Notes: generated by a model from the letters alone, not told the origin. 64,000 nucleotides of DNA from Bosea sp. (in: a-proteobacteria) (GCF_030695125.1 NZ_JAUYTP010000039.1:259-64258), one strand, 5' to 3'. Numbered from the stretch's first letter, positions 36,064-54,036 are shown. Translations and numbers: made by a program.

Positions 36064-36249
36064 ATGTCGAACGATCTTGTCCTTGCCCAGAGCCACGCCT
36101 TCGCACTCGCTCGCACGCTGATGGTCCCGATTACGGTCTTCCAGATCGATGGCGCCTATGGAGTGCTGCCGAGCGACGAGATCGACGACGCAGACGAGCT
36201 CCACGTCATCCATGAGTTCGACCCTCATGATCGCCGGCCGGCTCACTGA
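36064..36249 (+). CDS. Small acidic hypothetical protein (61 aa)
   Basis: SD GGATGGAG. MSNDLVLAQSHAFALARTLMVPITVFQIDGAYGVLPSDEIDDADELHVIHEFDP. First gene of the co-oriented train. Confidence 0.5.
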   Translation: MSNDLVLAQSHAFALARTLMVPITVFQIDGAYGVLPSDEIDDADELHVIHEFDPHDRRPAH

Positions 36250-36442
36250 GCCGGGAGTGGGCGCCGCAAGCGAGCGGTCGCCCGCAAGGGAGGCTGCGCC
36301 GCGAACGATTGATCTCATTTCCCGTCGAAGGTCGATCCGCGCCCTTGCAGGCGCCGCTCTTCGCGGCGGTTGGGCTTGGACCCGCGAGATGTGCGGGAGG
36401 GACGACGCAGCAGGAAAGGCCGGACGTAAAGCGCCGGGAGAG

Positions 36443-37402
36443 ATGATGGAGCAACGAGAACTCGAAGAACTGAAGGGGCGCGTGTTGTGTGCGGCGGTGC
36501 TGGAGAAAGCCGGCTTCGCCATCGATCTGAAGGAGAGCACGCGCCGCGCCGTCAAGCACCGGCGCGGCAGCGACATCATCATCGTGATCCACGAAGGCCG
36601 GGGCTGGTTCGATCCGCTGTCGGACGCCAAGGGCGATGTCTTTTCGCTGATCCAGCATCTGGACGGCGTCGCCTTCGCCGAAGTGCTTGTGCGTGCGGCC
36701 GAGCTGGTCGGGTTTGGACCGGCGGAACCTGCGTGGCAGAGATCGCGCACGCAGAGGCCGGATGTCTCTCTTGCCGAACGCTGGCGCGCCCGGCGAGCCC
36801 TTCGGCCGGGCTCTGCCACCTGGCGCTACCTGCGTCACGAACGCCATCTCCCCGAAAGGGTGCTGCGCGCCGCGATCCGTCAGGACCGGCTGCGGGAAGG
36901 CCCGCATGGCAGCGTGTGGGCCGCCCATGTCGACAACGGCGGCATTGTCACCGGATGGGAAGCGCGCGGCCCGCAATGGCGTGGGTTTTCGACCGGCGGG
37001 ACCAAGATGCTGTTCCGACTGGGAGCGCCCGACGCCTTGAGGCTTTGCATCACCGAGGCGGCGATCGACGCCATGAGCCTTGCAGCGCTCGAGGGGCTCC
37101 GGCCCGGAAGCCTCTATCTCAGCACCGGCGGCGGCTGGTCGCCTGCGACAGATGCAGCGGTGCGAACGCTCGCCGCGCCTCCCGGCGCCCAGCTCGTCGC
37201 GGCGACGGATGCCAACAGCCAGGGCGAGGTTTTTGCAGGGCGGCTGCGCGAGATCGCCGAGAGCGCCGGCTGCGACTGGTTTCGGCTGCGGCCGCCAGGC
37301 GACGACTGGAACGACGCTTTGAGGGAGAAGGCGGGGGAGGAGCAGGAAAGGAGGAATGGGAGGAGAGACTTGCCGCATGCCCGCCGGCCGCATCAAGGGT
37401 GA
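36443..37402 (+). CDS. DUF3991/Toprim-domain protein (primase/topoisomerase-like, plasmid/ICE type)
   Basis: Start MMEQRELEEL behind GGGAGAG. The Toprim-like segment is LCITEAAIDAMSLAAL...LVAATDANSQGE with a DxD-type acidic motif. The 417-aa track ORF is over-extended. Confidence 0.65.
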   Translation: MMEQRELEELKGRVLCAAVLEKAGFAIDLKESTRRAVKHRRGSDIIIVIHEGRGWFDPLSDAKGDVFSLIQHLDGVAFAEVLVRAAELVGFGPAEPAWQRSRTQRPDVSLAERWRARRALRPGSATWRYLRHERHLPERVLRAAIRQDRLREGPHGSVWAAHVDNGGIVTGWEARGPQWRGFSTGGTKMLFRLGAPDALRLCITEAAIDAMSLAALEGLRPGSLYLSTGGGWSPATDAAVRTLAAPPGAQLVAATDANSQGEVFAGRLREIAESAGCDWFRLRPPGDDWNDALREKAGEEQERRNGRRDLPHARRPHQG

Positions 37403-37543
37403 CGCTTTGCCCGGCTGCGCCGGCCCTTGACCCGGCCGGACGGCGAGGCGGCCGCAAGGGAGGGGTCAGGAAGAGCCGAAGATGATGGCGATGTCGCGAG
37501 GATGAGCCGCGCTCCGGTCTGACGAGTCCACAGGAGCCAGTTC

Positions 37544-38146
37544 ATGACCCTCTCCCCCATCCGAAAAGTGTTTCAGGGCGTCGCCGACCGGCGCCAAATG
37601 TTTGCGATGTTCGACCGCCATGCCCAGCGGCCCGATCGCGGCCAGGGTAACGCCGGCTCGCTCTACGCCGGCGAATGGTTCGAGATCGGCCAGGCGGCGC
37701 ACGACTATATGTTCGAGGCCCTGCCGCCAGTCATCTTGGCGGTCGATATGTTCGCGCTGCGCGAGTTTCTGACCGGTTCGATCACCAGCGTCTTCTTCAC
37801 ATTGTGGATCGACGGCCGGGCCCGGTACTTCCACGGTTATTGCGATCTCGCCGATATCAATTCCGGCAGGCGCATGCGCGAGGCGATTGTCGAGCGCGAA
37901 ACCCGACCCGTTCGGGCGATGACGCGGCAAGAGCGTCTGGAGCACATCTGGTCGAGCACCCATGACGACTATCGCGGCTATGCCGACGGGCGCTGGCCCG
38001 CGCCCGAGAGAGACAAGCGCACGGTCACGGTCTATAGGGGCCGGCACGGGACGACGTCAAAACTTCTCGACCGTCTGACGGATAGCGAGATCAGCGAAAA
38101 GCTCCCCGTGCATCTGCGCTATCTGCCCGACGCGATCGCGGCGTGA
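37544..38146 (+). CDS. Conserved plasmid/ICE hypothetical protein (I recall this as DUF1419-like)
   Basis: 200 aa. AGSLYAGEWFEIGQAAHDYMFEALPP...FHGYCDLADI. SD CAGGAG. Confidence 0.55.
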   Translation: MTLSPIRKVFQGVADRRQMFAMFDRHAQRPDRGQGNAGSLYAGEWFEIGQAAHDYMFEALPPVILAVDMFALREFLTGSITSVFFTLWIDGRARYFHGYCDLADINSGRRMREAIVERETRPVRAMTRQERLEHIWSSTHDDYRGYADGRWPAPERDKRTVTVYRGRHGTTSKLLDRLTDSEISEKLPVHLRYLPDAIAA

Positions 38147-38155
38147 TGGGCGCCG

Positions 38156-38557
38156 GTGATGTTCAGCTTTTCCGTCACGGATGTCCGCGCCGTCATCACG
38201 CGCGGACGGATCGACGCCGTCCTCAATGGCGGCTTTCGCAATCCCCATTATGGCCTCGCTTCCGGGCAGGACGAACGACCGGGCGTATGGCTGGTCGGCG
38301 ATGAGGGCGTCTACATCATGTCCAACGGCAAGCTTGCCGAGGATCAGCGTCCGCTCGTCGTCTACGCCCAGGAGTGCGATCCAAAAACCAATCCCGACTA
38401 CTGGCATTACAAGCGTCAGCACTTTGGCGGCGATGACGGCGTCGAGTTTCTCGATGCAGCCGAGCTCGTGAAGCTGCTCATGGCCGCGCCGTCGGCGACG
38501 CATCTCACGATCACGATGACCGACAGCGCCCTGTCGCTCGCCCTGGCCCGGCGCTGA
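38156..38557 (+). CDS. Conserved plasmid/ICE hypothetical protein (I recall this as DUF3085-like)
   Basis: 133 aa. GVWLVGDEGVYIMSNGKL...DYWHYKRQHFGGDDGVEFL. GTG-ATG start at 38156/38159. Confidence 0.5.
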   Translation: MMFSFSVTDVRAVITRGRIDAVLNGGFRNPHYGLASGQDERPGVWLVGDEGVYIMSNGKLAEDQRPLVVYAQECDPKTNPDYWHYKRQHFGGDDGVEFLDAAELVKLLMAAPSATHLTITMTDSALSLALARR

Positions 38558-38637
38558 TCCGCCGGCTGAACCAGCCACCCACCCACCATCCATCGCCCGC
38601 GACCAAACCTCCCGTCGGACCTGATCCGGCGGGAGCG

Positions 38638-41600
38638 ATGGCGCGCGCCCCGATCAGAGGAGAATTCGCCATGGCTCACGATCACCACTTGTCTCTTGAT
38701 CCCTTCACCATCGACCTCTTCAACGACACCGCGCTCTCATCGGGCCTGAGCCTCGGCGTGACGGCCTTCGCCGGCGACGTCGTAGCCAATGACGACGATG
38801 ACCCGGAGCCCACGCCGCCGACGCCGGCGCAACGGATCGTTCCGTCGGGGCCGCGGCTTTCAACGCTTGGTCGGGCCAACTTCGTCCTTGAGGACAATCG
38901 CGGTTTGGCTGCGAACTGGAAGGATCGTGCCCGCGACAGCATTGCTGCGATCCGGATCGCATCGCAAATCGAAGTTGAGCAGCGGCCGGCGACGCTGGAC
39001 GAACAGCGCAGGCTGATCCGCTTCACAGGATTCGGCGCCTCCGACCTCGCCAATGGCGTCTTCCTGCGGCCGGGCGAAACGACATTCCGGAAGGGCTGGG
39101 AGACGATCGGCGGCGCGCTGCAGGATGCGGTCAGCGACGCCGATTACGCTTCGTTGGCGCGCTGCACGCAGTACGCTCATTTCACGCCGGAGTTCATCGT
39201 CCGGGCAATCTGGGCCGGCCTGCGGCGGCTCGGCTGGCGCGGTGGCCGCTTGCTCGAACCTGGCATCGGAACCGGGCTGTTCGCGGCACTCATGCCGGAA
39301 GCCTTTCGCGATTGCGCCCACGTCACCGGCGTCGAGCTTGATCCGACGACGGCGCGCATCGCCCGGCTGCTGCAGCCGCGCGCTCGCATCCTCGCCGGCG
39401 ACTTTGCCCGAACCGAGCTACCTTCGAACTTCGACCTCGCCATCGGCAACCCGCCGTTTTCCGATCGCATGGTCCGCTCCGACCGCGCCTATCGTTCGAT
39501 GGGCTTGCGGCTGCACGACTACTTCATCGCGCGCTCGATCGATTTGTTGAAGCCTGGCGGGCTGGCGGCCTTCGTCACCTCACATGGCACGATGGACAAG
39601 GTGGACGCGTCAGCGCGCGAGAAGATCGCGAAAGTTGCCGATCTGGTCGCTGCGATTCGGCTGCCGCAAGGCAGCTTCCGCGCCGACGCCGGGACGGACG
39701 TCGTCGTCGACATCCTGTTCTTCAGGAAGCGGAAGCTGGGCGAGCCGCAAGGCGAGCTCGCATGGGTCGATATCGAGGAGGTGCGGGCCGCCACGGCAGA
39801 CGAGGGTGCGATCCGCGTCAATCGCTGGTTCGTGCGCAATCCCGGCTTCGTGCTTGGCACGCACGCCCTCACCACAGGGCCGTTCGGCGAGGCCTATACC
39901 TGTCTGCCCCAGCCCGACGTCGCGCTCGACGCCGCGTTGAACGCCGCCATCCGTCTCCTCCCGGAGAGCCTCTATGACGGCGAGCCGGAAGCGGTCGATC
40001 TCGACGACGGGGAAGCGTCGGACGTTGATCTCGTTCTCCCGCACGAGACGCGCATCCGCGAGGGCAGTTACTTCGTCGACACACGCCGCGGGCTGATGCA
40101 GCTCGTAGACGGCCAGCCCGTCGCGGTGAAGGTTCGAAAAGGGCGGAGCGCCGAGGGCGTCCCGGAAAAGCACGTCCGGATCATCCAGAAGCTGATCCCG
40201 ATCCGTGACGCCATGCGCGAGGTCCTCAGCTGCCAGGAACAGGACCGGCCCTGGAAGGATGAGCAGGTTCGCATGCGCATCGCCTGGTCGAGCTTTTTGC
40301 GCGACTTCGGGCCGATCAACCACACGACGGTCTCGATCTCTCAGGACGAGTCAACGGGCGAGGTCCGCGAAACCCATCGCCGTCCGAACCTGCAGCCATT
40401 CCTTGACGATCCCGATTGCTGGCTCGTCGCCTCGATCGAGGATTACGACCTCGATACCGACACGGCAAAGCCCGGTCCTCTCTTCAGCGAGCGCGTCATC
40501 GCGCCGCTTGCCGCGCCCGTTATTACTTCGGCTGCCGACGCGCTTGCCGTCGTCCTGAACGAGCGCGGCCGCGTCGATCTCGAGCACATTGCCGAGCTTC
40601 TCCATCGGGATGTCGCCAACGTCATCGTCAAGCTGGGCGACGCGATCTTCCGGAATCCGGCCGACGGCACCTGGCTGATGGCGGACGCCTATCTGTCGGG
40701 GCCGGTGCGCGACAAGCTGAAGGTTGCCGAAGCCGCGGCAGCGCTCGACCCCGCATTCGAGCGCAATGTCCGCGCCCTGGTCGCGGTCCAGCCGGCCGAT
40801 CTCGGTCCCTCCGACATCACCGCTCGTCTCGGCGCGCCGTGGATTCCGGCAGCCGACGTCGTCGCCTTCGTCAAGGAGGCGATGGGCGCCGAGATCACGA
40901 TCCGCCACATGCCGGAGCTGGCGTCATGGACAGTGGATGCGCGCCAGCTCGCCTGGCTGGCGGCGGGAACCTCCGATTGGGGCACGGGCCGTCGCCATGC
41001 CGGCGAGCTGCTGACCGACGCGCTGAACAGCCGCATCCCGCAAATCTTTGACACGGTGAAGGAGGGCGGCAGCGAGCGGCGCGTGCTCAACGTCGTCGAT
41101 ACCGAAGCCACCAAGGAGAAGCTGCACAAGATCAAGACCGCATTCCAGACATGGGTCTGGTCCGATCCGGCACGCACCGACCGGCTGGCGCGGGTCTACA
41201 ATGACCGCTTCAACAACATCGCGCCGCGCGCTTTTGATGGCTCGCATCTGAACCTGCCTGGCGCAAGCGGCGCTTTCACCCTCTACCCCCATCAGAAGCG
41301 CGGCATCTGGCGGATCATCGCGACTGGGTCGACCTATCTTGCCCACGCGGTCGGCGCCGGAAAGACCATGACCTTTGCTGCCGCCGTGATGGAGCAGCGT
41401 CGGCTCGGGCTGATCGCCAAGGCCATGCTGGTCGTGCCGGGCCATTGCCTGGCGCAGGTCGCGCGGGAGTTTTTGGCGCTCTACCCGAACGCCCGCATCC
41501 TCGTCGCCGACGAGAGCAATTTTACGAAGGAGAAACGCCACCGCTTTCTGTCGCGCGCTGCGACCGCGACCTGGGACGCGATCATCATCACCCATTCGGC

Positions 41601-43773: not shown

Positions 43774-43946
43774 TCTGAGCAGAAGGGCGGAAAGCGGGGC
43801 GAGAGAAAAAATGAACCTTGCTCGCCGACCGGCCATTCCGGTGACACTGACGCTCAACCGCCGCCGTCGCGATCCCGGTCCGTTGTCCCGCGCAGGGCTT
43901 TGCCCCGCTTGGCCATCCGGACCGACATGCTCGGCCGCAGTTGCAC

Positions 43947-44008
43947 CGACCTGTCCGCTCCGCGGCCTGGGAGGGGTCTTCGGGAAGAAGACTGAACCGG
44001 ACAGGTCG
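43947..44008 (+). other. Nested long hairpin upstream of the ParB-nuclease gene
   Basis: Outer arms cgacctgtccg (43947-43957) and cggacaggtcg (43998-44008). An inner gtcttc-gggaa-gaagac hairpin is present. No U-tract. Confidence 0.35.
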
Positions 44009-44044
44009 AGGCCGTGTCCCGCACCCTCTGAAGGAGCTTCCCCC

Positions 44045-45736
44045 ATGCATCTCATGAAAGTCGATCCGCGCGCGCTGAAGGAGAATTCCGATCGTTCGCG
44101 CCAGACCAAATCCACACCGCAGGCCGACGCGTTGCTGCTGGCGACGATCAAGGCGGTCGGCCTCGTCCAGCCGCCGGTGATCGCGCCGGAGACCGATGGC
44201 GGCAATGGATACATCATTGATTCCGGGCATCGCCGCGTGAAGCAGGCGATCGCGGCCGGGCTGGAGGAAATCGACGTCCTGGTCGTCGATGCCGCCAACG
44301 ATAATGGCGCGATGCGCAGCATCGTCGAGAACATTGCCCGGGAGCCGCTGAACCCGGTCGATCAGTGGCGGGCGATCGAGCGTCTCGTCTCGCTCGGCTG
44401 GACAGAAGAAGCGATCGGCATCGCGCTCGCCTTGCCGGTGCGCCAGATCAGGAAACTAAGGCTGCTGGCGAATGTGCTGCCGGCGATGCTGGACCACATG
44501 GCGAAGGGCGATATGCCGGGCGAGCAGCAACTGCGCGCGATCGCGGCCGCCAATCTCGACGAACAGCGCGAGGTCTGGAAGGCGCAGAAGCCGAAGAAGG
44601 GCGACCCGCAGGTATCATGGTGGAGCGTAGCGAACGCTCTGTCGAAGAAGCGCATGTACGCGCGCGACGCGAGTTTTGGCGATGATCTGGCCCAGGCCTA
44701 TGGGATCGCATGGGTCGAAGACCTCTTCGCGCCGGCCGACGAGGACAGCCGCTACACCACCAATGTCGAGGGGTTCCTTGGTGCGCAGCAGGAGTGGATG
44801 ACGATCCATTTGCCCAAGCGCGGCGTCATCACCGACGTCAACAACTGGGGTCAGGTCGTGCTCCCGCCCAAGGCCGAGCGCGTCCACGGCAAGCCGGGCA
44901 AGAGCGACCGCACGGCGATGTATCTCGACCGCGAGGGCAAGGTGCAGAGCGTGCATTTTCGGCTGCCGGAGCCGAAGAAGAACAAGGGCGCGGACGAGGC
45001 GGCTGGCGACGATGCGATCGTGATGGTGAAGCCCCGGCCGGACGTGACCCGCAAGGGCATCGAGATGATCGGCGACCTGCGCACCGATGCGCTGCACGAG
45101 GCACTGGCCCGGGCGCCGATCGAGGACGATACGCTGATGGCGCTGCTGGTGCTCGCGCTCGCCGGTCGAAACATCTCGGTCCAGTCTGGCGCATCCGATG
45201 ACGTTTATGGGTTCGCCCGGATGGAGCGGCATGCCGTTGGCCTCGTCGGCGAGGACGGCAAGCTCTCCTTTGACATGGACACGCTGCGGGTCGCAGCGCG
45301 CTCGGCCCTGATCGACATCATCTCGGCCCGCGAAAACCGGACCAATAGCGGCATCGTTGCGCGCCTTGCCGGCGACGCGGTCGGCGCGGACGGTTTTCTG
45401 CCGACCATGGGCACGGACGAGTTCCTGTCGTGCCTGTCTCGCCAGGCGCTGGAGCGCTCTTGCAAGGACACGTCCGTGCTTCCCCGTGCGCGGGTGAAGG
45501 ACACGCGCGCCGCGCTCGTCGAGCACTTCAGAGAAGCGCGCTTCGTTCATCCCACCGCGCTGTTTGCACCGACCGCAGCCGAGGTCGCCACCTGGCGTTC
45601 GAAGAGCGCGGTCGGCGCGGATGACGACGCCGACGTCACGGCGGACGATGCTGATATCGGGTCCGGCGATGCCGCTGCACTCGACGACTTCGATCCCGAG
45701 GCGATCGACGAGGCCTACCGTGTCGCGGCGGAATAA
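44045..45736 (+). CDS. ParB/Srx-N-terminal-domain (ParB-like nuclease) protein, 563 aa
   Basis: Start MHLMKVDP behind GAAGGAG. The ParB-N motif region is YIIDSGHRRVKQAIAAG. The C-terminal ~400 aa is long and uncharacterised. The track ORF from 43538 is over-extended. Confidence 0.75.
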   Translation: MHLMKVDPRALKENSDRSRQTKSTPQADALLLATIKAVGLVQPPVIAPETDGGNGYIIDSGHRRVKQAIAAGLEEIDVLVVDAANDNGAMRSIVENIAREPLNPVDQWRAIERLVSLGWTEEAIGIALALPVRQIRKLRLLANVLPAMLDHMAKGDMPGEQQLRAIAAANLDEQREVWKAQKPKKGDPQVSWWSVANALSKKRMYARDASFGDDLAQAYGIAWVEDLFAPADEDSRYTTNVEGFLGAQQEWMTIHLPKRGVITDVNNWGQVVLPPKAERVHGKPGKSDRTAMYLDREGKVQSVHFRLPEPKKNKGADEAAGDDAIVMVKPRPDVTRKGIEMIGDLRTDALHEALARAPIEDDTLMALLVLALAGRNISVQSGASDDVYGFARMERHAVGLVGEDGKLSFDMDTLRVAARSALIDIISARENRTNSGIVARLAGDAVGADGFLPTMGTDEFLSCLSRQALERSCKDTSVLPRARVKDTRAALVEHFREARFVHPTALFAPTAAEVATWRSKSAVGADDDADVTADDADIGSGDAAALDDFDPEAIDEAYRVAAE

Positions 45737-45769
45737 CCCCGACCTCCTCACTCAAGCCCGATTTACCTC

Positions 45770-45804
45770 CCGCCGCCGGCCTCATGCCGGCGGCGGTTTC
45801 GTTT
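45770..45804 (+). terminator. Rho-independent terminator
   Basis: ccgccgccggc-ctcat-gccggcggcgg, an 11-bp GC stem followed by tttcgttt. Confidence 0.75.
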
Positions 45805-45831
45805 GCACGCAGCGCCATCACGGAGGACAAC

Positions 45832-46305
45832 ATGTCCGCGCACGCAATATTCGATCATGCACCCATCGGCTCGACCATCGCCTGGTCCGACGGCACGCCG
45901 CGGCCACTGGCGCGCTTCACCAGGAAACTCGCAGCCTGGCTGACCAACAACGGCAAGGGCCGCCTGATCCGGAAGCAGCCCAGCAGGAGCATGGGCAATC
46001 TCAGCCTGTCCGCCAGCTTCACTTTGCACGAAGCGGATTTCGGCACTGGGGGCGTCGTCGCGATCCGGGTCCATCGCAGCTTCTCGCTGGACTCCACCCT
46101 ACACTTCAGCGCGGTCGAGCGCCCGGCGATCGGGTCGGTGCGCGTGTTGGACCGGGTCGGCGCGGATGCCGAGCTTGTCCATCTCGCGTCAAACCTCGCG
46201 GCGGCGGAGGAATGGCTCTCTCGTCATGGCTATCCGCGCGCCGTGCTTCAGGAGGTCACGGCCGACGAGGTCGGGGCCGCTGTCGTCGAGGGGAGGGCGG
46301 CATGA
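45832..46305 (+). CDS. Hypothetical protein (157 aa)
   Basis: SD GGAGG 6 nt upstream. MSAHAIFDHAPIGSTIAWSDGTPRPLARFTRKLAAWLTNNGKG... Its stop overlaps the next ATG. Confidence 0.55.
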   Translation: MSAHAIFDHAPIGSTIAWSDGTPRPLARFTRKLAAWLTNNGKGRLIRKQPSRSMGNLSLSASFTLHEADFGTGGVVAIRVHRSFSLDSTLHFSAVERPAIGSVRVLDRVGADAELVHLASNLAAAEEWLSRHGYPRAVLQEVTADEVGAAVVEGRAA

Positions 46306-47189
46306 CAAGCGCATTGGCTTGCGACCCCGCGACCGGCGCGGATTCCGAAGTGCCGGAGGTCGAGTTCGGGCGATCGATTGCAGGTTTCCCAGTCGCCCGC
46401 GTCGGCGTCAGTGCCTTCGCCATGCTGCCGGCGCGCGACCGGCGTCATTATCTCGCGACGGGCTGGCGCATTCCGCGCCCACTCACCGAATGGCGTCGAT
46501 CCGACTTTTACGGCCATTCCGGCGAACTGGCGGATGAGGCGGCTTTCCGCGCAAAGGTCCTGGAGCAGGCGGAGCATCAGCGCGAGAAGAGGGCGCTCGG
46601 TCGCCGTGACGTCCACAGATGGGTGCAGACGCCATGGGGGGTCTCACAGGGCGCGACAGTCTACGCCGAGGGCGTCGAATCGCATTTCACCGCCGGACAT
46701 GGCGGCTTCAAGCTTTCGGCCGAGCGCAATCGTAAGGTTCATGCGCTGTTGCGCGCGGAAGTTGGCTGGTACGAGGAGGACTGCGCCTGGGCGATCGTCG
46801 CCATCACCTTCCCCGACCTTTTTACCCGCTTCGAGCGGCGCTGCGCCGAGCGCTCGGTCAGGGATAGCTGGCCCGACGCATGGGAGACGATCTTCGGCGT
46901 CGTGCTCGCGCCGGGGGAATCCCATGAGAAGGACCGGCGGGCTTTTCATGAGCTTCATGCCGAGAACTGGATCGTGGTCTCGGCGATCGCGTCCGGACAG
47001 CAGAAGGGATTTGTCGAGTGCGTCGCCACGCCAGGCGGCCGGCGCGGCGAGGGAACCGAGGAGCGTCGCTTTCTCGTTCCAGCGGACGAATACGCGGTCG
47101 GCCGGTTCGGCTTCGTCATCAATCCGATCCGTCATGCTGTTTATGGAGGTCCTTCCAGCTTCCTCGGCTGGCAGGGCAGGGTATCGTGA
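46302..47189 (+). CDS. Conserved plasmid/ICE hypothetical protein (295 aa; I recall this as DUF7007-like)
   Basis: ATGA overlap with the upstream gene. HFTAGHGGFKLSAERNRKVHALLRAEVGWYEEDCAWAIVAITFPDLF. Confidence 0.6.
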   Translation: MTSALACDPATGADSEVPEVEFGRSIAGFPVARVGVSAFAMLPARDRRHYLATGWRIPRPLTEWRRSDFYGHSGELADEAAFRAKVLEQAEHQREKRALGRRDVHRWVQTPWGVSQGATVYAEGVESHFTAGHGGFKLSAERNRKVHALLRAEVGWYEEDCAWAIVAITFPDLFTRFERRCAERSVRDSWPDAWETIFGVVLAPGESHEKDRRAFHELHAENWIVVSAIASGQQKGFVECVATPGGRRGEGTEERRFLVPADEYAVGRFGFVINPIRHAVYGGPSSFLGWQGRVS

Positions 47190-47515
47190 TGACGATCCTC
47201 CCTGAGACGTTGGCGCAGCTTTCCCGCATGGAGGAAGCGCGCCGGCAGATCCAGCGCCAGCTCGAGCTGATCGACCGGCAGATCATCCGCCGCGCGACCG
47301 CGTTGGTCCCGCAGCAGCGCAGACGGCAGGGCCTGCAGCGAGGCGAGACATCCGGCGCGCGCATGGTGCTGGAGCGTTATCGCGCAACCCTGGCTGCGCT
47401 GACGGCCGAGCGTCAGCCGGAGATCGACGCGCTGTCGCGCAAGCTCGCGCGGCAGGACCAGGCCATCGCCGCCCATCACGAGCGTCAGCAGATCGCGCTT
47501 TCGCGCGCGGCGTGA
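47189..47515 (+). CDS. Coiled-coil hypothetical protein (108 aa)
   Basis: TGATG overlap with the upstream gene. The sequence is heptad-like and Arg/Gln/Glu-rich (LSRMEEARRQIQRQLELIDRQIIRR). Confidence 0.5.
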   Translation: MTILPETLAQLSRMEEARRQIQRQLELIDRQIIRRATALVPQQRRRQGLQRGETSGARMVLERYRATLAALTAERQPEIDALSRKLARQDQAIAAHHERQQIALSRAA

Positions 47516-47920
47516 CCGGGCGACGCGGGGGGCGGGCGCTGCAGATCCGTCAGCTCCGAGGCAATCGGCGGCGCATGGCTGCTGCGAGGCCCCGACTGTC
47601 TATTTCGGTAGCGTCGCTGAGGCGAGGCCGGGCTGGCCCTTGTCCTCTCGGGTTTGCTGCGGTCTAAACCGTCGGCCAGGCGCTTCAAGGCCGCGTGCCG
47701 CGCCGCGTGGCGGCCGGCCTTCGCCGATCTCGCAGACGAGGCGCAGCGTCCTTCGCGAGGGCTTACGCCCTGCTTGGCCGCAAGCCTCGTCCGCTCGCCT
47801 GGCATAGGCCGGGCCCTGATGCGCCAGGGCATTCGACGGTTCGTATCGACCGCACCCGAGGGGACGACGGCCAAGCGCTGGCCGCGACGCTCGAGGCGAA
47901 ACCGAAGAAAGGAACATTCC

Positions 47921-48508
47921 ATGGCCAAGACCGCACAATCGCCCCGCGAGAGCGCCCGCGTCGTTCCGCTCCGCAAGGGCACGACCATCGAAATGACCCG
48001 GCTCGCCTGCCCCGACCAGCAGCAGGCGCTCCTCATTGCCGAGAGTTTCGGGCTCCCGGTCCTCGACGGCGACGGCATCCGCGACATGCACGAGCGGCTG
48101 ATCGTAGAGACCGCCGCCAGCCTGCAGGAAGCGCTTGGCGAGCGGGCGATGCAGATCCACCTGCAGCGCATCGTCGGCGCCTATGTCGGTTCGGCCCATG
48201 GCGCCGGGCAGTTTTATTCACGCGCAGTCACCGAGGCACGCGACGCCACCGCCAAATCGGCCTGCGATGCTCGCGACGAGGATGTCGATGGCCCGGTCGG
48301 CTTCGACGGCCCCGCCCAGCGCAAACGAGAATTCGCGGCCGACATGGGCGTCCAGGCGCATGCACTGCTTATGGCCGCAGAAGGTGCAGTTACGGCTTAC
48401 GAGCAGGTCATCGGCGAACGATGGAAGCCCTACGAGCGAGCAGCGGAAACCGCCGGGCCATCCGTCGATCGCAAGGCGGCCGCGGCTCAGATGGCCGCCT
48501 TCGGCTGA
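47921..48508 (+). CDS. Hypothetical protein (195 aa)
   Basis: SD GAAAGGAAC. MAKTAQSPRESARVVPLRKGTTIEMTRLACPDQQQALLIAESFGLPVLDG... It is preceded by a 400-bp non-coding GC-rich spacer. Confidence 0.55.
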   Translation: MAKTAQSPRESARVVPLRKGTTIEMTRLACPDQQQALLIAESFGLPVLDGDGIRDMHERLIVETAASLQEALGERAMQIHLQRIVGAYVGSAHGAGQFYSRAVTEARDATAKSACDARDEDVDGPVGFDGPAQRKREFAADMGVQAHALLMAAEGAVTAYEQVIGERWKPYERAAETAGPSVDRKAAAAQMAAFG

Positions 48509-48514
48509 GGCTTG

Positions 48515-48540
48515 GCGAGCGGGGCGTCAGCCCCGCTCGC
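48515..48540. terminator. Bidirectional terminator hairpin between convergent genes
   Basis: gcgagcggggc-gtca-gccccgctcgc, an 11-bp stem between the stop at 48508 (+) and the vapC stop at 48573 (-). Confidence 0.6.
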
Positions 48541-48572
48541 TATCTCTACGGTCCGTGCGATCGGACAACCGT

Positions 48573-49046
48573 TCACCGCAACCGTTTTCCGATAGATCGA
48601 ACCGGAAACCGTTCCGGATCATCGTTCCAAGGATCGAACACCACCGCGCCGGTGGCGCTCATGTCCTTGGTGTTGCGGGTCACGAGATACAAGTCGTACT
48701 CGATCGCCGTTGCCGCCAGCAGCGTGTCGATCACCGGCGGCGGATGACCGCTCGCCCGCCTGATCTCTCCCGACATCCGCCCCCAGGCCAGCACGACCGG
48801 GTTGCTGACGCCGAGCATTCGATCCTGGAATCGTTGCGCCAGGGCGTCGCGGGCGGCCTTGTATCTCGGCCGGTCGGGATGATCGGGCGCTAGGTTGAAA
48901 ATCCCCTTGTCGTATTCGGCCAGCGTCAGGATGCTGATGAAGAAGCTGTCCTCGCGCTGGTCGCGCGCCCATCCCTTGACGGACGGCGCACCATTGGGAT
49001 TGATCAGCGCGGCGACGACGTTGGTGTCGAGAAGCCAGCCTTTCAA
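48573..49046 (-). CDS. vapC: PIN-domain toxin VapC
   Basis: Begins MKGWLLDTNVV (first acidic PIN residue), with LTLAEY and a C-terminal TRNTKD. ATGA overlap with vapB. Confidence 0.85.
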   Translation of the reverse strand: MKGWLLDTNVVAALINPNGAPSVKGWARDQREDSFFISILTLAEYDKGIFNLAPDHPDRPRYKAARDALAQRFQDRMLGVSNPVVLAWGRMSGEIRRASGHPPPVIDTLLAATAIEYDLYLVTRNTKDMSATGAVVFDPWNDDPERFPVRSIGKRLR

Positions 49047-49309
49047 AGTTCGACGTCCCGCCCGAAATCCGCTTCGCGGGCTAAGTCGAGCCCGTCCAGA
49101 TGCAGGCTCTCCATGAAGTCGACGAAGGGCGCCTGCTGCTCTTGCGGAACCAGACGCTCGAATTCCTCGACGCTCATGACCACGACCGCGTCATGGCCTC
49201 GCACGCTCACCCGCTGCGGCCCCACGGTCCGAGCGTGACGCACGACTTCGCTGAAGCGCGCTTTTGCGTCTTCGAGCTTCCATCGTCCTTGAGGTATTGC
49301 CTTGGCCAT
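49043..49309 (-). CDS. vapB: Phd/YefM-type antitoxin (VapB)
   Basis: 88 aa. WKLEDAKARFSEVVRHARTVGPQRVSVRGHDAVVVMSVEEFERL is the typical Phd/YefM N-domain. Confidence 0.8.
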   Translation of the reverse strand: MAKAIPQGRWKLEDAKARFSEVVRHARTVGPQRVSVRGHDAVVVMSVEEFERLVPQEQQAPFVDFMESLHLDGLDLAREADFGRDVEL

Positions 49310-49598
49310 TCACGCAGCTCTTTTCGTCATGATATTCGAGCTAGTCAGCTAGTCAGAAGATAGCGGCTCTCGGCCCCCGGCGCCAGCCCTCGGACACGAG
49401 ATAGGACTGCCAAGTCCGATCGGCCGATCGCGACCCGTCCCGGCCGACGGTCTTGGCCGGGACGGCATCGGCTGCAACGGCTTTGCCGTCTTCCACTTCG
49501 TTCCAGCCCTTCAGGTGCAGCCATCGCCTGGGCTCCCGGCTTTTCGACCTTTCGTGACGGGGTCGCGATCGGCGCGACCTCCACAAGGAGGTTGGATC

Positions 49599-50525
49599 AT
49601 GAGCAAGTCAGAAGAGAAACCGCGCGCGGACATTTATGCCCGGATCACCGACAGGATTGTCGCGCAACTGGAACAGGGCGTGCGCCCGTGGATGCAGCCT
49701 TGGCGTTCAGATCGTGGCAGCGGAAACGTGACACGGCCACTACGGCATAACGGGCTGCCCTATAGCGGAATGAACGTGCTCCTGCTCTGGTCTGAGGCTG
49801 CGGCGCGCGGCTTTTCCTCCCCGGTCTGGATGACATTCAAGCAGGCGCTTGAACTCGGCGGCGCGGTCCGCAAAGGCGAGAGCGGATCGATGGTTGTCTT
49901 CGCCAGCCGCTTCAAGAAAACCGAAACCGATGCCTCGGGCGACGTGGTCGATCGCGAAATTCCATTCCTCAAATCATACACGGTCTTCAACGCCGAGCAG
50001 ATCGACGGCCTGCCCGCCAACGATCGCAACCAGTCCGAACCGGCTTGCGATCCGATCGAGCGGATCGACCATGCCGATCGCTTCTTCGCCCAAACCGGCG
50101 CCGTCATCCGACATGGTGGCGACCGCGCCTACTATTCCCCGGCGACGGACCATATTCAGATGCCGCCCTTTGCGACGTTTCGCGATGGCGCGTCTTATGT
50201 CGCGACGCTGAGCCATGAGGCGGCCCATTGGACAGCAGCCCCATATCGCGTGAATCGCGACCTTAGCCGCTACGGCAAGGACCGCAGCGAGAGGGCGCGC
50301 GAGGAGCTGATCGCGGAACTTGGAAGCTGCTTCCTCTGCGCCGATCTTGGCATTGCGCCGGAGCTGGAGCCGCGTCCAGATCACGCCAGCTATCTCGCTT
50401 CCTGGCTCGAGGTTCTGTCCAACGACAAGCGCTTCATCTTTTCGGCCGCGGCGCATGCACAGCGGGCCGTCTCCTATCTCCACGGGCTTCAGCCGCAGGC
50501 AGGCTGGATCGCGGAGGCTGCATGA
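49599..50525 (+). CDS. ardC: ArdC-type antirestriction protein (ssDNA-binding N-domain plus zincin metalloprotease domain)
   Basis: SD AAGGAGG. IYARITDRIVAQLEQGVRPWMQPW...PYSGMNVLLLW...VWMTFKQALELGGAVRKGE is the ArdC-N/DUF1738 pattern. HEAAHWT is the HExxH motif. Confidence 0.85.
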   Translation: MSKSEEKPRADIYARITDRIVAQLEQGVRPWMQPWRSDRGSGNVTRPLRHNGLPYSGMNVLLLWSEAAARGFSSPVWMTFKQALELGGAVRKGESGSMVVFASRFKKTETDASGDVVDREIPFLKSYTVFNAEQIDGLPANDRNQSEPACDPIERIDHADRFFAQTGAVIRHGGDRAYYSPATDHIQMPPFATFRDGASYVATLSHEAAHWTAAPYRVNRDLSRYGKDRSERAREELIAELGSCFLCADLGIAPELEPRPDHASYLASWLEVLSNDKRFIFSAAAHAQRAVSYLHGLQPQAGWIAEAA

Positions 50526-50698
50526 ATAGTCGAGCTCGATGATGCCAGAGCCAGTTCGGGATTTGCGGAGAGCGCTATCACCATGCGTTTCCCGGGCGTT
50601 TGCTGGGCCTTGCGTCCACTGCGTCCTCGATGGGCATGTCTGACCGGAGGCCGTCGTCGCTGGCGCGCCGTCTCGCTCTCACACCTGCAACGGCCGTC

Positions 50699-50756
50699 CG
50701 CGACTTTCTTCCCCTGGGCCCTTCGGTCCCATTCCTCGCGAAGCAAGAAAGTCGCG
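50699..50756 (+). other. Long-range hairpin upstream of the DUF736 gene
   Basis: cgcgactttctt (50699-50710) pairs with aagaaagtcgcg (50745-50756): a 12-bp stem and 34-nt loop inside a 350-bp ORF-free spacer. Confidence 0.35.
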
Positions 50757-50877
50757 CCCGACCGTCCTCCACTGCGTTGCGGTCCTTTCAGGATGCAGGT
50801 CGATCGCCTCCGGTCTTTTGACTGCCATCGAGGCCGCGATGGGCGCAAGGTCTCGAACAAGCAGAAGGAACTCCACA

Positions 50878-51186
50878 ATGGCGATCATCGGTAGCTTCAC
50901 CTCGAACGGCGACGGCTTCAACGGCACGATCAAGACCCTCAACCTCAACGTCAAAGCCAAGATGGTGCGACCCGAGCGGCCATCCGAAAAGGGCCCGGCC
51001 TTTCGCATCCTCGCAGGCAATGTCGAATTCGGCGCGGCCTGGCAAAAGACCTCGACCGAGGGGCGCGACTATCTCTCGGTCAAGCTCGACGATCCGAGTT
51101 TTCCTGCCGCCATCTATGCCACGCTGATCGAGGTCGAGGGCAGCGACGGCCTGCAGCTCATCTGGTCCCGGCCGACCCGCGACTGA
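50878..51186 (+). CDS. DUF736-family protein
   Basis: [33 protein letters not shown]... is the characteristic DUF736 N-terminus. SD GAAGGAAC. Confidence 0.8.
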
Positions 51187-51200
51187 GACCAGTCCAAGAT

Positions 51201-51222
51201 GGCCCCGCCGCGAGGCGGGGCC
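51201..51222 (+). terminator. Terminator-like GC hairpin after the DUF736 gene
   Basis: ggccccgcc-gcga-ggcggggcc, a 9-bp stem with a weak or absent U-tract. Confidence 0.4.
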
Positions 51223-51284
51223 AATCCTTCGGACCCGGCATCGCCAGCGCAACGGTCCGCCTTTTCCCTACCCGCCAGTTCGGA

Positions 51285-51375
51285 TGTGGTTTGAACCACA
51301 ACTGACCCGATGAAGCGGTCGGCGGACGCTTTGTGGTTCAAACCACACTTTTGGCAATTGGTGGTTCAAACCACA
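51285..51375. repeat. Three copies of a 16-bp parS-like palindrome TGTGGTT(TG/CA)AACCACA
   Basis: tgtggtttgaaccaca (51285-51300), tgtggttcaaaccaca (51332-51347) and ggtggttcaaaccaca (51360-51375). Confidence 0.65.
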
Positions 51376-51621
51376 TCTCGATCCTTGCACGCTCTGAGCT
51401 TTGTTAGCCGCCCTGGCGCTTCCTGTGCGAGCTGGAGGGGCTCTCTGGTCGGCCTAGTGTACGGCCGGCGGAGCCCGCCTCAAGGACGTGCGGTGCCCCC
51501 AAAATGCTTCGCATTTCGGCTCCCCCACGCGCCGCCTCCGGCGGTCGGCTGCGCCGATCCTTGACCCGGTCTCCACCGACGCGTGGCGCGCCTTCGTCCA
51601 TTCAAGACGAAGGAGGTTCTC

Positions 51622-51828
51622 ATGACCATGCCGATCGATCAGCAGATTGCCGAAATCAAGGCCGAACTGAACAATGCCTGCCTGACGCCGCGCGAGCGGC
51701 GCGAAGCGCAGCACGAGCTGGAATTCCTGACCGAGCAGGACCGCAGCGATGCGGAGACGGCCTACTTCACGAAGGTCGAGGTCTGGGCTGCGGGCCAGGC
51801 GGTGGATCTCGCAGCGCTGCCGTTCTGA
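51622..51828 (+). CDS. Small hypothetical protein (68 aa)
   Basis: Strong SD AAGGAGG. MTMPIDQQIAEIKAELNNACLTPRERREAQHELEFLTEQDRSDAETAYF... A terminator follows it. Confidence 0.55.
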   Translation: MTMPIDQQIAEIKAELNNACLTPRERREAQHELEFLTEQDRSDAETAYFTKVEVWAAGQAVDLAALPF

Positions 51829-51846
51829 ACATCACGAATCGAACTG

Positions 51847-51881
51847 GCCGGTCTGACGCGACACGCGTCGGGCCGGCTTTT
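51847..51881 (+). terminator. Rho-independent terminator
   Basis: gccgg-tct-gacgcg-aca-cgcgtc-ggg-ccggc followed by tttt. Confidence 0.7.
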
Positions 51882-51952
51882 CGCATGTCGCCCGCGCCTG
51901 CGCTTGCTTCGCTGCGCGCAGGCGCGAGCTGTCCATGCCGCCTCGCCCGCGG

Positions 51953-51968
51953 TGTGGTTTGAACCGCA
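51953..51968. repeat. parS-like palindrome copy 4 (one mismatch)
   Basis: tgtggtttgaaccgca, about 80 nt upstream of the parA ATG. Confidence 0.55.
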
Positions 51969-52049
51969 CCGTCACGTCATCGCCGCGATCGGCCGTCAGA
52001 AGGCGTCCCGCATCGGAGTTGCCGGGACCAGCGTCATGTCGCGTTCGCC

Positions 52050-52793
52050 ATGAAGACCATCGTGATCAACAATCAGAAGGGCGGCGTCGGCAAGACGACG
52101 CTCGCCGTCCACCTTGCCTGGCACCTCGCCGAGACCGGCGGTCGCGTGCTGCTGATCGACGCGGATGCCCAGGGCAATGCCACCGACACGATGAAGCGGC
52201 ATCGTGTCGACGTCACCGCCGCCGAGCTGTTTCGACCAGGCAGGGTGCCTGTGGCTGGCGGGGCCGACGGGATCACGCTCGCGGCTTCGGACAGCTCGCT
52301 CACCGACGTTGATCGCGGCGACGCGGCCGGCATCCAGCAGTTTCGCGACAATCTGCGCTCGGTGAGCGATGCATTCGACGTCTGCGTCATCGACACGCCG
52401 CCTTCGCTCGGCCTGCGCAGCGTGGCCGCGCTCGTCGCCGCGACGCATGTACTGTCGCCGATCTATCTCGAGGACTATTCGGTGAAGGGCGTGAAGGGTC
52501 TTCTCCAGACCGTGATCGGCGTGCAGCAGCGCTATGGCCGCTCCGACATGAAGTTCCTCGGGCTGCTGCCGTCGAACTTCAACACGAAGTCACCGCGCCA
52601 ACGGACGCATCTCGACCAGCTTCTGCGCGAGGCGGGCAAGCACGTCTTTCCGGGCCACATCGTCGCGCGTGACGGCTATGCCGAGGCGGTGGCGGAGGGC
52701 GTTCCGGTCTGGACATTGAAGAAGCGCTCGGCGCAGGAGGCCGGTCGCGAAATCCGCACCGTGCTGTCGCGCATCGTCGAGCAGATGGGGTGA
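52050..52793 (+). CDS. parA: ParA partition ATPase
   Basis: MKTIVINNQKGGVGKTTLAVHLA is the deviant Walker A. 247 aa. Confidence 0.9.
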   Translation: MKTIVINNQKGGVGKTTLAVHLAWHLAETGGRVLLIDADAQGNATDTMKRHRVDVTAAELFRPGRVPVAGGADGITLAASDSSLTDVDRGDAAGIQQFRDNLRSVSDAFDVCVIDTPPSLGLRSVAALVAATHVLSPIYLEDYSVKGVKGLLQTVIGVQQRYGRSDMKFLGLLPSNFNTKSPRQRTHLDQLLREAGKHVFPGHIVARDGYAEAVAEGVPVWTLKKRSAQEAGREIRTVLSRIVEQMG

Positions 52794-52797
52794 TGGC

Positions 52798-53748
52798 ATG
52801 GCGCTGGATCTGAGCTTCAAGGACCTCGCTGACGTCGCTGTCGGCAACGCGTCCGACGGTCGGCCGCTCAAGGTCGCACTGGACCTGATCGACGAGGATC
52901 CTGATCAGCCGCGGCGCGAGTTTCCCGAGGAGGAACTACAGAACTTGGCGGCCTCGGTTCGGATCGATGGCATTCTTCAGCCGATCGTGGTCCGGCGCGC
53001 GCAACAGGCCGGGCGCTTCATCATCGTGATGGGAGCGCGGAGATACCGGGCGGCAAAGCTCGCCGAGCTTAATGAGGCGCCCATCTTCATTCAGGATGCG
53101 GATGAAGCGAACCCCTACGCCCAGATGGTCGAGAACATCCAGCGCGATGATCTGAAGCCCAGCGAGATCGCACGCTTCATCACGGCGCGGCTCGAGGCCG
53201 GTGAGAAGCAGACCGAGGTTGCGCGACGTCTCGGCAAACCGCGCGACTGGGTTTCGCGCTATGGCGCGGTGCCGAAGATGCCGCCCTTCCTGCAGGAGAT
53301 GCTGGCAACGAGTTCGATCCGCGCCGTCTACGAACTCTATCAGGCCTGGCGACAGGAGCCGGGAGAGGTTGAGCGCGCGGTCGAGGACGGCACGGCCTTC
53401 ACCGATGGTCAGGCGCGGGAGTTTGCGGCGACGGTCCGAGCATCCGGCACGCTGCCAGGATCGATCGATGCGACGGCCGACGAGACGGATGGCTCCATGG
53501 AGCGCGTCGAGCAGAGTGGTCGACCTGACCGGAGTGCGCGCACTCCCGCAGCGATAGTGCCGCAATCGCGTCCTGCGGCTAAGGGGGTGGCTGTTGTGCG
53601 GGTCCGTGTCGGCAAGCGGCGCGGTGCGTTGGTGCTCGATGATGCGTCGGCGAGAAGCCACGGGTTCGCGCGCGTTGCATTCGATGACGGCTCGGTTGAG
53701 GATGCGGGCGTGACCGCGCTTCGGATCGAAGCGGTTCTCCTCGGCTGA
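52798..53748 (+). CDS. parB: ParB partition protein
   Basis: ParB N-domain motifs LQPIVVR and IVMGARRYRAAKLA, followed by an HTH region (QTEVARRLGKPRDWVSRY). Confidence 0.85.
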   Translation: MALDLSFKDLADVAVGNASDGRPLKVALDLIDEDPDQPRREFPEEELQNLAASVRIDGILQPIVVRRAQQAGRFIIVMGARRYRAAKLAELNEAPIFIQDADEANPYAQMVENIQRDDLKPSEIARFITARLEAGEKQTEVARRLGKPRDWVSRYGAVPKMPPFLQEMLATSSIRAVYELYQAWRQEPGEVERAVEDGTAFTDGQAREFAATVRASGTLPGSIDATADETDGSMERVEQSGRPDRSARTPAAIVPQSRPAAKGVAVVRVRVGKRRGALVLDDASARSHGFARVAFDDGSVEDAGVTALRIEAVLLG

Positions 53749-53776
53749 CATTGCGAGACCAGCGCCTCACTCAGAG

Positions 53777-53792
53777 TGTGGTTTGAACCACA
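53777..53792. repeat. parS-like palindrome copy 5
   Basis: tgtggtttgaaccaca, 29 nt after the parB stop. Confidence 0.6.
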
Positions 53793-53967
53793 CTGCGTCA
53801 TTCCAAGGGCGGTCTCATTTCCTAAACCGGGACAGCATCGCCGGTTTGCTGTGGGCCGCCGAGAGCGCTCATCAGCTGCCCCTTCACGAATCGTTAACCG
53901 AGGAGGATTGTTGAGAGTCTTGGAGTTGCTTGTTAGTGCAGGATAGGCTTGCCGCCAGCGAATTATT

Positions 53968-54002: not shown

Positions 54003-54036
54003 AGATGGTTCTCGTGACTGTCGAGAGGACGCCCTG

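Follow-up and report, generated by a model that had tools for sequence, protein, structure and literature searches.

In a 64,000-nucleotide (nt) stretch of Bosea sp. DNA (GCF_030695125.1, NZ_JAUYTP010000039.1:259-64258; hereafter the window), which is high-GC (~65%) alphaproteobacterial DNA, we identified a train of 20 genes between positions 36,064 and 55,604 that is probably the leading, that is, first-entering, region of a MOBP-type conjugative or mobilisable element of Hyphomicrobiales. We place the probability of this reading at roughly 0.72. It is supported by each available computational check and is still a prediction, since the nick site, the transfer polarity, early expression and every protein function are what we infer from sequence. 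The leading-region principle and several of the gene families in the train have already been published, and the island itself is unsurprising. New here are three spacers within it, S1-S3, which are non-coding and conserved as genes are, and which carry compensatory base changes in helices that mostly fit the predicted transferred strand.

A gene train of constant order and orientation

Genes were called from third-position GC content, Pfam domains and tblastn comparison with an annotated Bosea vaviloviae plasmid (Table 1). All 20 genes of the train are open, with intact catalytic motifs, and 18 of them lie on the + strand, phd and vapC being the only - strand genes (two-sided binomial p = 4e-4, a rough figure only, because operons inflate same-strand runs). 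Stronger evidence than this p value is provided by the recurrent order and orientation in all 80 related genome loci of Hyphomicrobiales, which were fetched with ArdC as the probe. In every locus reaching far enough, the genes for the methylase-helicase, ParB-like protein, unkA, DUF7007, unkB, unkC, (a 61-amino-acid (aa) open reading frame, ORF), ArdC and DUF736 follow one another in this order and on the same strand. An earlier sequence-only reading of the window had described a one-directional train from 36.06 to 53.75 kb, interrupted only by the toxin-antitoxin pair, and both the gene calls and the 80 loci bear this out.

The full layout up to the relaxase is common to Bosea and Beijerinckiaceae contigs, with aa identities of 85-95%, and a search with the 20-kb stretch gave 439 matching plasmid records, 166 from Agrobacterium, 83 from Rhizobium and 71 from Bradyrhizobium among them. 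Moreover, the train is found upstream of, and pointing towards, three different relaxase systems: the MobC-relaxase pair present here, a 764-aa relaxase in a Bosea plasmid, and the traCDG|oriT|traA arrangement of pRi1724.

Predicted origin and polarity of transfer

A key question is which side of the origin of transfer (oriT) the train lies on with respect to the entering strand. The spacer between the KorB-type parB gene and mobC (53749-54036) contains 5'-GCTGGCGGCAAGCCTATCCTGCACTAAC-3' on the - strand and, on that strand, the nick motif 5'-CCTATCCTG|CACTA-3' (the bar marks the cut), the predicted nick context being 5'-...GCAAGCCTATCCTG|CACTAAC-3'. MOBP relaxases such as RP4 TraI and VirD2 have the nick consensus YATCCTG|Y, preceded by an inverted repeat (PMC3772185), and the two short inverted repeats found here are placed as in the RP4 layout, upstream of nic (PMC3772185). 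In a comparison with two Bradyrhizobium plasmids whose relaxases are ~65% identical to the one studied, the nick block is the sole conserved island of the parB-mobC spacer. In 7/7 related MobC-relaxase loci, the block TCGCTGGCG..AAGCCTATCCTGCACTA lies on the - strand, with 47-92 nt between it and the downstream mobC; no locus has it on the + strand. The hairpin pair upstream of mobC, previously proposed as a candidate oriT, thus stands as a predicted MOBP-type oriT with a nick block conserved in all seven loci.

The relaxase carries the histidine triad HLDDKHPHVH (HxDDKHPHVH) and an HLEYI segment, and shares 62-67% identity with relaxases of Bradyrhizobium plasmids across 90-97% of its length. 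Two inspected Bradyrhizobium homologues are ~355 aa long, and their plasmids are typed MOBP/MPF_T. A truncated relaxase was ruled out by these homologues of the same length. The oriT of the Bosea vaviloviae plasmid was also considered as support for the nick call and set aside: it is an unrelated region and of no help, because that plasmid has a different relaxase.

A nick motif on the - strand with inverted repeats 5' of it implies that the - strand would be transferred leftwards, with the train entering first and the transferred strand serving as template. In the polarity predicted here, the - strand is cut at 53939/53938 and enters 5' end first, so that the left-hand DNA precedes the rest. 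The - strand is the template for all 16 + strand genes from 36064 to oriT, and the predicted arrangement is exactly that described for leading regions (PMC11541004).

Anti-restriction homologues and published leading-region families

The cargo agrees with this reading. Both the ArdC protein and the methylase-helicase are homologues of proven anti-restriction proteins. ArdC combines a single-stranded DNA (ssDNA)-binding N-domain with a zincin metallopeptidase, whose HEAAH motif is intact at residue 206; its R388 counterpart is required in the recipient to overcome hsdRMS (PMC7213743). The 1700-aa methylase-helicase possesses EPGIGTG and NPPF motifs of a TaqI-like N6-adenine methylase, together with GAGKT and DEAQ motifs of a superfamily 2 (SF2) helicase, and its best match in the PDB is the TaqI methylase. 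Across 89-95% of its length, it shares 41-43% identity with the 'DarB-like antirestriction protein' of Burkholderia phages Bcep22, DC1 and JC1. P1 DarB and ArdC have been described as binding and protecting transferred DNA (PMC5512222). No restriction endonuclease partner was found among the train proteins in Pfam and PADLOC scans. The PADLOC and NCBIfam matches of the methylase-helicase are partial, low-scoring domain matches (mad2, DrmD), far under the NCBIfam cut-offs and with no partner genes, which argues that it is not a defence system. We regard this DarB-like protein as a candidate anti-restriction protein.

Supplementary Table 1 of Samuel et al. 2024 (PMC11541004) lists ArdC (family 56) among families that are enriched in leading regions and oriented with the transferred strand (T-strand). 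DUF736 (Riorf102/Tiorf76/y4eB) is family 58, likewise leading-region-enriched and T-strand-oriented, and a ParA family is placed just before ArdC in the same list (PMC11541004). Family 209 (Riorf95) is probably the methylase-helicase and family 164 (Tiorf45/ArgG/Mll9335) probably unkC, both linked via shared gene names only. The view that the cargo is typical of leading regions is therefore upheld for ArdC and DUF736 by the published survey, and probably also for the unkC and methylase-helicase families.

In the earlier cargo list, the Toprim protein, methylase-helicase, ParB-like protein, ArdC and DUF736 were correctly named; the label 'nuclease' for the ParB-like protein is not retained, its assignment being to ParB_N / PRK13832 only. 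The anti-defence reading of the train likewise needs narrowing: the last 3 kb before oriT (ParA, KorB and the palindromes) form a partition or control module, not an anti-defence one. ParA/KorB, phd-vapC and Toprim are more likely to serve maintenance or establishment than anti-defence. At least seven small or unknown proteins had been noted in the train, and we counted nine or ten products without known function: the 61-aa ORF, DUF1419, DUF3085, unkA, DUF7007, unkB, unkC, DUF736, the 68-aa ORF and a doubtful ORF at 51310-51564.

Three structured spacers

The three hairpin-bearing spacers pointed out in the sequence-only reading do exist, as conserved, non-coding and structured DNA. Their nt identity to Bosea loci is 80-98% for S1, 89% for S2 and 85-88% for S3. 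In the comparison with Bosea loci, the conservation of S2 and S3 equals that of the flanking genes (85-89% nt identity, few gaps); the oriT, S4 and S5 spacers fall to 60-74%. A hidden coding sequence in S2 was ruled out, since its variable sites show no codon (3-nt) periodicity. Searches with blastn or nhmmer located each of S1, S2 and S3 in 61-75 loci distributed over the order. With nhmmer, S1 gave a single same-orientation match in 61 loci, S2 was matched in 75 loci (2/77 matches on the opposite strand), and S3 gave 95 same-orientation matches in 65 loci.

When folded as single strands, S1-S3 are more stable than their dinucleotide shuffles (z between -1.3 and -4.1, varying with spacer and strand), and covarying helices were detected in all three. 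The S2 core, folded as the - strand with 24 diverse sequences, forms a nearly unbranched, imperfect hairpin of ~250 nt, in which 65 pairs are arranged in 12 helices and 95.2% of cells are paired, versus 32-43% with slid partners. Compensatory changes were present in 21 pairs versus 12.3 +/- 1.6 in shuffles, and on all five measures the observed value was reached by 0/500 shuffles. For S1, 97% of cells are paired (32-44% with slid partners), and the consensus fold is -33.2 on the - strand versus -13.5 on the + strand.

For each of S1, S2 and S3, the - strand has the lower consensus energy, a comparison to be read with the caveat that structures predicted on one strand are biased to that strand. 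Six S2 pairs are most often G.U/T when read on the - strand (A.C if read as the + strand). In + strand notation, pair series run, for example, AT:16 / AC:49 / GC:3 and CG:28 / CA:25 / TA:10, and in S3 AT:30 / AC:27 / GC:4, as expected from wobble intermediates on the - strand. Among covarying pairs, A.C cells outnumber G.T cells by 232 to 44 in S2 and by 62 to 11 in S3.

Two sequences, an invariant CCTTGAAG and GGTTyAnGACCG, are present on the 3' arm of S2 in the correct orientation for unkC, with a weak -10; S1 and S3 have nothing comparable. By the Frpo logic of Masai and Arai (1997), a promoter on a hairpin arm reportedly drives transcription only once the hairpin has formed; on this logic, a promoter in the S2 3' arm would give + sense transcription into unkC only in the hairpin form. 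Furthermore, ~120 nt upstream of ardC are homologous to the 3' half of S3 (50750-50882) and include a TTTyGAC ... CGCGATsGGCGC stretch, so that ardC and DUF736 share a control module. A scan for promoters and terminators gave no excess over shuffles; promoter-like sites were found on the - strand only, one of them fitting phd-vapC. Searches of Rfam returned nothing relevant, either at gathering thresholds over the whole window or at E up to 1 over 35.5-56.2 kb; the sole match, to mir-434, is due to chance.

The best single explanation of S1-S3, at somewhat below even odds, is that they are transferred-strand DNA elements, either promoters or priming sites, and a role at the RNA level comes close behind. 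More specifically, and tentatively, they may be previously undescribed transferred-strand promoters or primase entry sites, spread across Hyphomicrobiales plasmids and integrative and conjugative elements (ICEs), that switch on the ParB-like gene, unkC and DUF736/ardC; unkC and DUF736 would then play the part that early SSB/PsiB-type establishment factors have in enterobacterial plasmids.

Proposed course of events

If the train is a leading region, the MobC-relaxase would nick the - strand at 53939/53938, and the relaxase-bound 5' end would be transferred leftwards. ParA/KorB and their operators would enter first, followed by the genes for DUF736, ArdC, phd-vapC, unkC, DUF7007, the ParB-like and DarB-like proteins, DUF3085, DUF1419 and Toprim. 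The incoming strand would be the template of all + strand genes, which would make early expression possible. ArdC, by ssDNA binding and metalloprotease activity, and the DarB-like methylase-helicase would blunt restriction; Toprim, the ParB-like protein and ParA/KorB might act in priming, processing, partition or control, and the toxin-antitoxin pair in retention. S1-S3 may act on the transferred single strand as Frpo-like promoters or priming sites.

Alternative explanations

Several observations weigh against this picture or parts of it. The 8-mer nick motif has 16 copies in the window and is non-significant alone; it means little in itself, the nic and polarity calls are motif-based, and the case for the nick rests on conservation. 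The MOBP2 class was without anti-defence enrichment in Samuel et al. (PMC11541004), and the relaxase described here is placed in MOBP with no subclass. The unknown proteins, proposed earlier as prime candidates for new anti-defence functions, had no informative match in PADLOC, PHROGs, NCBIfam or the PDB. Neither scanning nor inspection found a convincing -35/-10 pair in the S1-S3 hairpins, S2 alone having an invariant CTTGAA. A strand-neutral fold, in which G.U pairs were disallowed, kept few pairs and showed a weaker strand preference (15 to 3 and 14 to 6), and some helices near ribosome-binding sites or start codons fit the + strand. Finally, the 64-kb window contains no type IV secretion system (T4SS) or coupling-protein genes, which bears on the transfer competence of this copy.

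One alternative is that S1-S3 work as RNA in established cells, as - strand antisense small RNAs or partly as + strand mRNA leaders controlling the translation or stability of the ParB-like, unkC, ardC and DUF736 messages; a leading region would still be possible under this explanation. RNA hairpins, more than DNA hairpins, typically show the kind of G.U predominance seen in the six S2 pairs, and + strand wobble pairs lie beside ribosome-binding sites (S2 columns 7-12 with 224-229; S3 columns 219-224 with 229-237). In addition, a contig from a run guessed to be RNA (50561-51023) joins S3 to DUF736, and would also fit a long mRNA leader, although it is without strand information. In pTiL-11, a ProQ/FinO-family gene directly follows unkC. 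However, there is no match to an Rfam family, and the scan for promoters and terminators that could serve a - strand RNA found only a single weak terminator-like site in S2 or S3. The S2 and S3 cores also stop 40-80 nt upstream of the start codons, so that an antisense RNA would leave the ribosome-binding site uncovered. We judge such an RNA-level role of S1-S3 to be unlikely, though not far behind the transferred-strand reading.

Another possibility, which we judge improbable, is that the train is a conserved maintenance backbone only, oriented by operons or by co-orientation with replication, and that its nearness to oriT is irrelevant to early expression or anti-defence. ParA/KorB, the toxin-antitoxin pair, the ParB-like protein and Toprim are classic maintenance functions, repABC lies just upstream of the DUF736 segment in Bradyrhizobium plasmids, and the train of pRi1724 stops ~10 kb short of oriT. 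Against this reading, the train is constantly oriented towards three unrelated relaxase/oriT systems; moreover, ArdC and the DarB-like protein are anti-restriction homologues rather than maintenance genes, and an independent survey found statistical enrichment of several train families in leading regions.

Still less probable is that this copy is a decayed, non-transmissible remnant whose relaxase module was cut off from the mating apparatus by metal-resistance and transposon insertions, as might be suggested by the missing T4SS and coupling-protein genes, the P-type ATPase and mercuric-reductase-like genes a few kb right of the relaxase, TniA/TniB at the left end and a C-terminal frame change of the Toprim gene relative to Bosea. 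Against this, each of the 20 genes is open and the catalytic motifs are intact, the relaxase matches its homologues in length, homologous plasmids (typed MPF_T) keep their T4SS far from this module, and near-identical copies are widespread in water metagenomes.

Comparison with known systems

The leading regions of F and IncI1 (ColIb-P9), and the islands of Samuel et al. (PMC11541004), resemble the train in that genes lie on the (here predicted) first-entering side of oriT with the T-strand as template. Anti-restriction genes, a methyltransferase, a toxin-antitoxin pair and long imperfect hairpins upstream of single genes are also shared with these systems. On the other hand, ssb, psiB and ardA of those plasmids are not in the train, which has DarB-like, ParB-like, DUF736, unkC and Toprim genes instead. 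The likeness of S1-S3 to the Frpo/ssi promoters is one of hairpin form and position only, S1-S3 being without a clear -35/-10 pair. Host clade and relaxase also differ (Hyphomicrobiales and MOBP here), and the system described here is known from sequence alone.

The ArdC of R388/pSa (PMC7213743), itself on a conjugative element, has the same two-domain architecture (ArdC-N and a zincin metallopeptidase with HExxH), a likeness at the level of domains. P1 DarB and the Bcep22/DC1 phage proteins likewise unite an N6-adenine methylase and an SF2 helicase in one large polypeptide. Phage DarB-like proteins are packed in the capsid, whereas the protein encoded here is plasmid-borne and would presumably be made in the recipient or transported. 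It is also without the lytic-transglycosylase domain annotated in some phage DarB-like proteins, and the term 'antirestriction' on the Bcep22-type homologues is itself an annotation.

With RP4 (IncP) the element shares a YATCCTG|Y nick with an inverted repeat upstream, a relaxase operon starting on the inverted-repeat side, and a KorB-domain ParB that is partnered by ParA, along with scattered palindromic sites, as in KorB/IncC. Unlike in RP4, the relaxase is much shorter (~345 aa), the accessory protein is MobC/NikA-like, the palindrome is GTGGTTyrAACCAC, and ParA/KorB lie directly beside oriT. The same genes in the same order and orientation make up a block of Ti/Ri and symbiosis plasmids (riorf95-102 of pRi1724, tiorf45/76, y4eB of pNGR234a, mll9301/9335 of pMLb); unlike here, those plasmids have a MOBQ TraA relaxase, and traCDG lies between train and oriT. 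Our literature searches turned up no account of the block as a unit, nor of the structured spacers.

To our knowledge, leading-region biology has been worked out almost wholly in enterobacterial F, IncI and IncW plasmids. Hundreds of sequenced replicons contain the train, which would be the matching module of the large Hyphomicrobiales plasmids and ICEs bearing genes for symbiosis, virulence (Ti/Ri), autotrophy and metal resistance. Provided that the polarity is as predicted, it offers a defined, very conserved set of nine or ten unknown proteins for anti-defence or establishment screening, and three covariation-supported hairpins with which to probe the single-strand-promoter idea outside Enterobacteriaceae. 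Most worth pursuing are these hairpins, together with unkC and DUF736, a pair of ultra-conserved unknown proteins whose genes each follow one of them.

Table 1 Features of the gene train, its predicted oriT and the flanking regions (positions within the window)
Feature	Position	Strand	Evidence or remark
TniB and TniA (Mu-type transposase), Tn5053/Tn7-like transposition module	190-2694		Left end of window; CobW/HypB-type GTPase adjoining, then hydrogenase cluster
NiFe-hydrogenase (hyp/hup) genes and complete cbb cluster (CbbR, FBPase, PRK, PGK, RuBisCO, CbbX-like)	5961-33303		
61-aa ORF	36064-36249	+	Opens the train; 67% aa identity to Bosea plasmid ORF at same position
DUF3991 and Toprim protein, primase-like candidate	36446-37402	+	Pfam DUF3991 4e-23, Toprim_2 1.9e-16
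DUF1419 protein	37544-38146	+	Pfam 4.4e-54
DUF3085 protein	38159-38557	+	Pfam 3.5e-41; match to PHROG 18284 (function unknown)
N6-adenine methyltransferase fused to SF2/SNF2 helicase, 1700 aa	38671-43773	+	Pfam N6_Mtase, Eco57I, ResIII, Helicase_C
S1	43774-44044	element on -	Upstream of ParB-like gene
ParB-like protein, 563 aa	44045-45736	+	NCBIfam NF010406 (PRK13832) 947 bits; Pfam ParB_N
unkA, 157 aa	45832-46305	+	55% aa identity to Bosea plasmid ORF
DUF7007 protein, 291 aa	46314-47189	+	Pfam DUF7007 1.8e-49
unkB, 108 aa	47189-47515	+	63% aa identity to Bosea ORF
S2	47516-47920 (core 47626-47881)	core on -	Upstream of unkC
unkC, 195 aa	47921-48508	+	1376 homologues
vapC	48573-49046	-	Pfam PIN 7e-7
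phd	49043-49309	-	Pfam PhdYeFM 2e-9
ardC upstream module	49483-49602	+	nhmmer E 5.5e-9 with S3 profile; pairwise alignment
ArdC	49599-50525	+	Pfam ArdcN 2.8e-42, MPTase-PolyVal 1.5e-48
S3	50526-50877 (element 50614-50877)	element on -	Upstream of DUF736
DUF736 protein, 102 aa	50878-51186	+	Pfam 1e-31
Palindrome GTGGTTyrAACCAC, 14 bp, five copies	51286-51299, 51333-51346, 51361-51374, 51954-51967, 53778-53791		
68-aa ORF	51622-51828	+	78% aa identity to Bosea plasmid ORF
ParA-type ATPase	52050-52793	+	Pfam AAA_31 8.7e-35, CbiA
KorB-type ParB	52798-53748	+	Pfam ParB_N 7.5e-25, KorB 4.5e-10, KorB_C
Predicted nic motif 5'-TATCCTG|C-3'	53938-53945	-	Predicted cut between 53939 and 53938
Two short inverted repeats, ACGCCA-gtt-TGGCGT and ACGCGC-ttt-gGCGCGT	53970-54003		5' of nic on - strand, mobC side; read from sequence
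MobC/NikA relaxosome accessory protein	54037-54546	+	Pfam NikA-like 1.1e-9, MobC 2.4e-9
MOBP-type relaxase, short form, ~345 aa	54567-55604	+	Pfam Relaxase PF03432 5.5e-15
Metal-resistance block (heavy-metal P-type ATPase, PCuAC, MerA-like)	56167-63816		Directly right of relaxase

Partition or control module and toxin-antitoxin pair

The palindrome GTGGTTyrAACCAC occurs five times in the window against 0.36 copies expected. Copies follow DUF736, precede parA and, within the oriT spacer, come just after korB, and corresponding places in most close relatives also carry it. These palindromes are probably operators or binding sites of the KorB-type ParB, or centromere sites. The ORF at 51310-51564 (84 aa) is probably not a gene, because the palindrome cluster overlaps it; its 'protein' identity among relatives is only 60-80%, and it more probably represents conserved regulatory DNA.

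Three of the closest relatives (loci L006, L007 and L009) lack the entire phd-vapC cassette. Just upstream of phd, a promoter-like site on the - strand, CTGACT-16-TATCAT (49356-49329), fits a promoter of the phd-vapC operon.

Other proteins of the train

The 61-aa ORF, which is found beside ardC in many loci, had no match in Pfam, PHROG or NCBIfam. No family match was obtained for unkA in Pfam, PHROG, NCBIfam or PADLOC, and unkB and the 68-aa ORF were also without a family match. A PDB sequence search gave nothing for unkC, DUF736, DUF7007 or DUF1419. The ParB-like protein has a GHRR box and no adjoining ParA partner.

The best 120 of the 1376 unkC homologues are 76-96% identical; unkC has no Pfam domain, some homologues are named 'ArgG' in UniRef, and it probably belongs to the Tiorf45/Mll9335 family. 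Its AlphaFold model is all-helical and poor (predicted local distance difference test, pLDDT, 55), and unfit for a fold search. For DUF736, whose best 120 homologues are at 75% identity or more, the model is confident (pLDDT 85) and all-beta with eight strands, and a Foldseek search of the PDB found no match (best E 0.2, template-modelling score below 0.37).

In the Toprim gene, the last 20 aa of the Bosea DUF3991/Toprim homologue align in another reading frame at 37368-37427. There may thus be a frame change near the 3' end, either real or a sequencing error.

Flanking cargo, insertions in relatives and environmental distribution

The left half of the window holds TniA/TniB, hydrogenase maturation and structural genes and the Calvin-cycle (cbb) cluster; to the right, the MerA-like gene of the metal-resistance block has pyridine-nucleotide disulphide oxidoreductase domains in Pfam. 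Hydrogenase/cbb and metal-resistance genes are on the same replicon, which ties the conjugation module to cargo for chemolithoautotrophy and metal resistance.

In relatives, the spacers are insertion hot spots, with accessory genes of RES-Xre, TetR, IHF-like, CspA-like, GNAT and ProQ/FinO types. In the Bosea plasmid (locus L001, 17445-20201), the DarB-like and ParB-like genes are separated by genes for RES-Xre toxin-antitoxin, TetR and enoyl-CoA hydratase, and pTiL-11 (locus L088, 13485-17682 and 22592-23521) has IHF-like, cold-shock and GNAT genes at the spacers in addition to the ProQ/FinO-family gene mentioned above. In two Bradyrhizobium plasmids (L003, 14036-23855; L004, 21132-30516), genes for TIR, caspase-like, Fic, DUF262 and anti-phage dGTPase proteins and a methyltransferase lie directly downstream of the relaxase. 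This is the predicted last-entering side, which would place defence at the lagging end and anti-defence at the leading end.

Across 47000-52000, 80-99% of the sampled 31-mers were present in contigs of ~20 metagenomes from drinking water, aquifers, wetlands, lakes, seawater and air. Such sharing of 31-mers indicates that near-identical copies of the element are widespread in aquatic samples.

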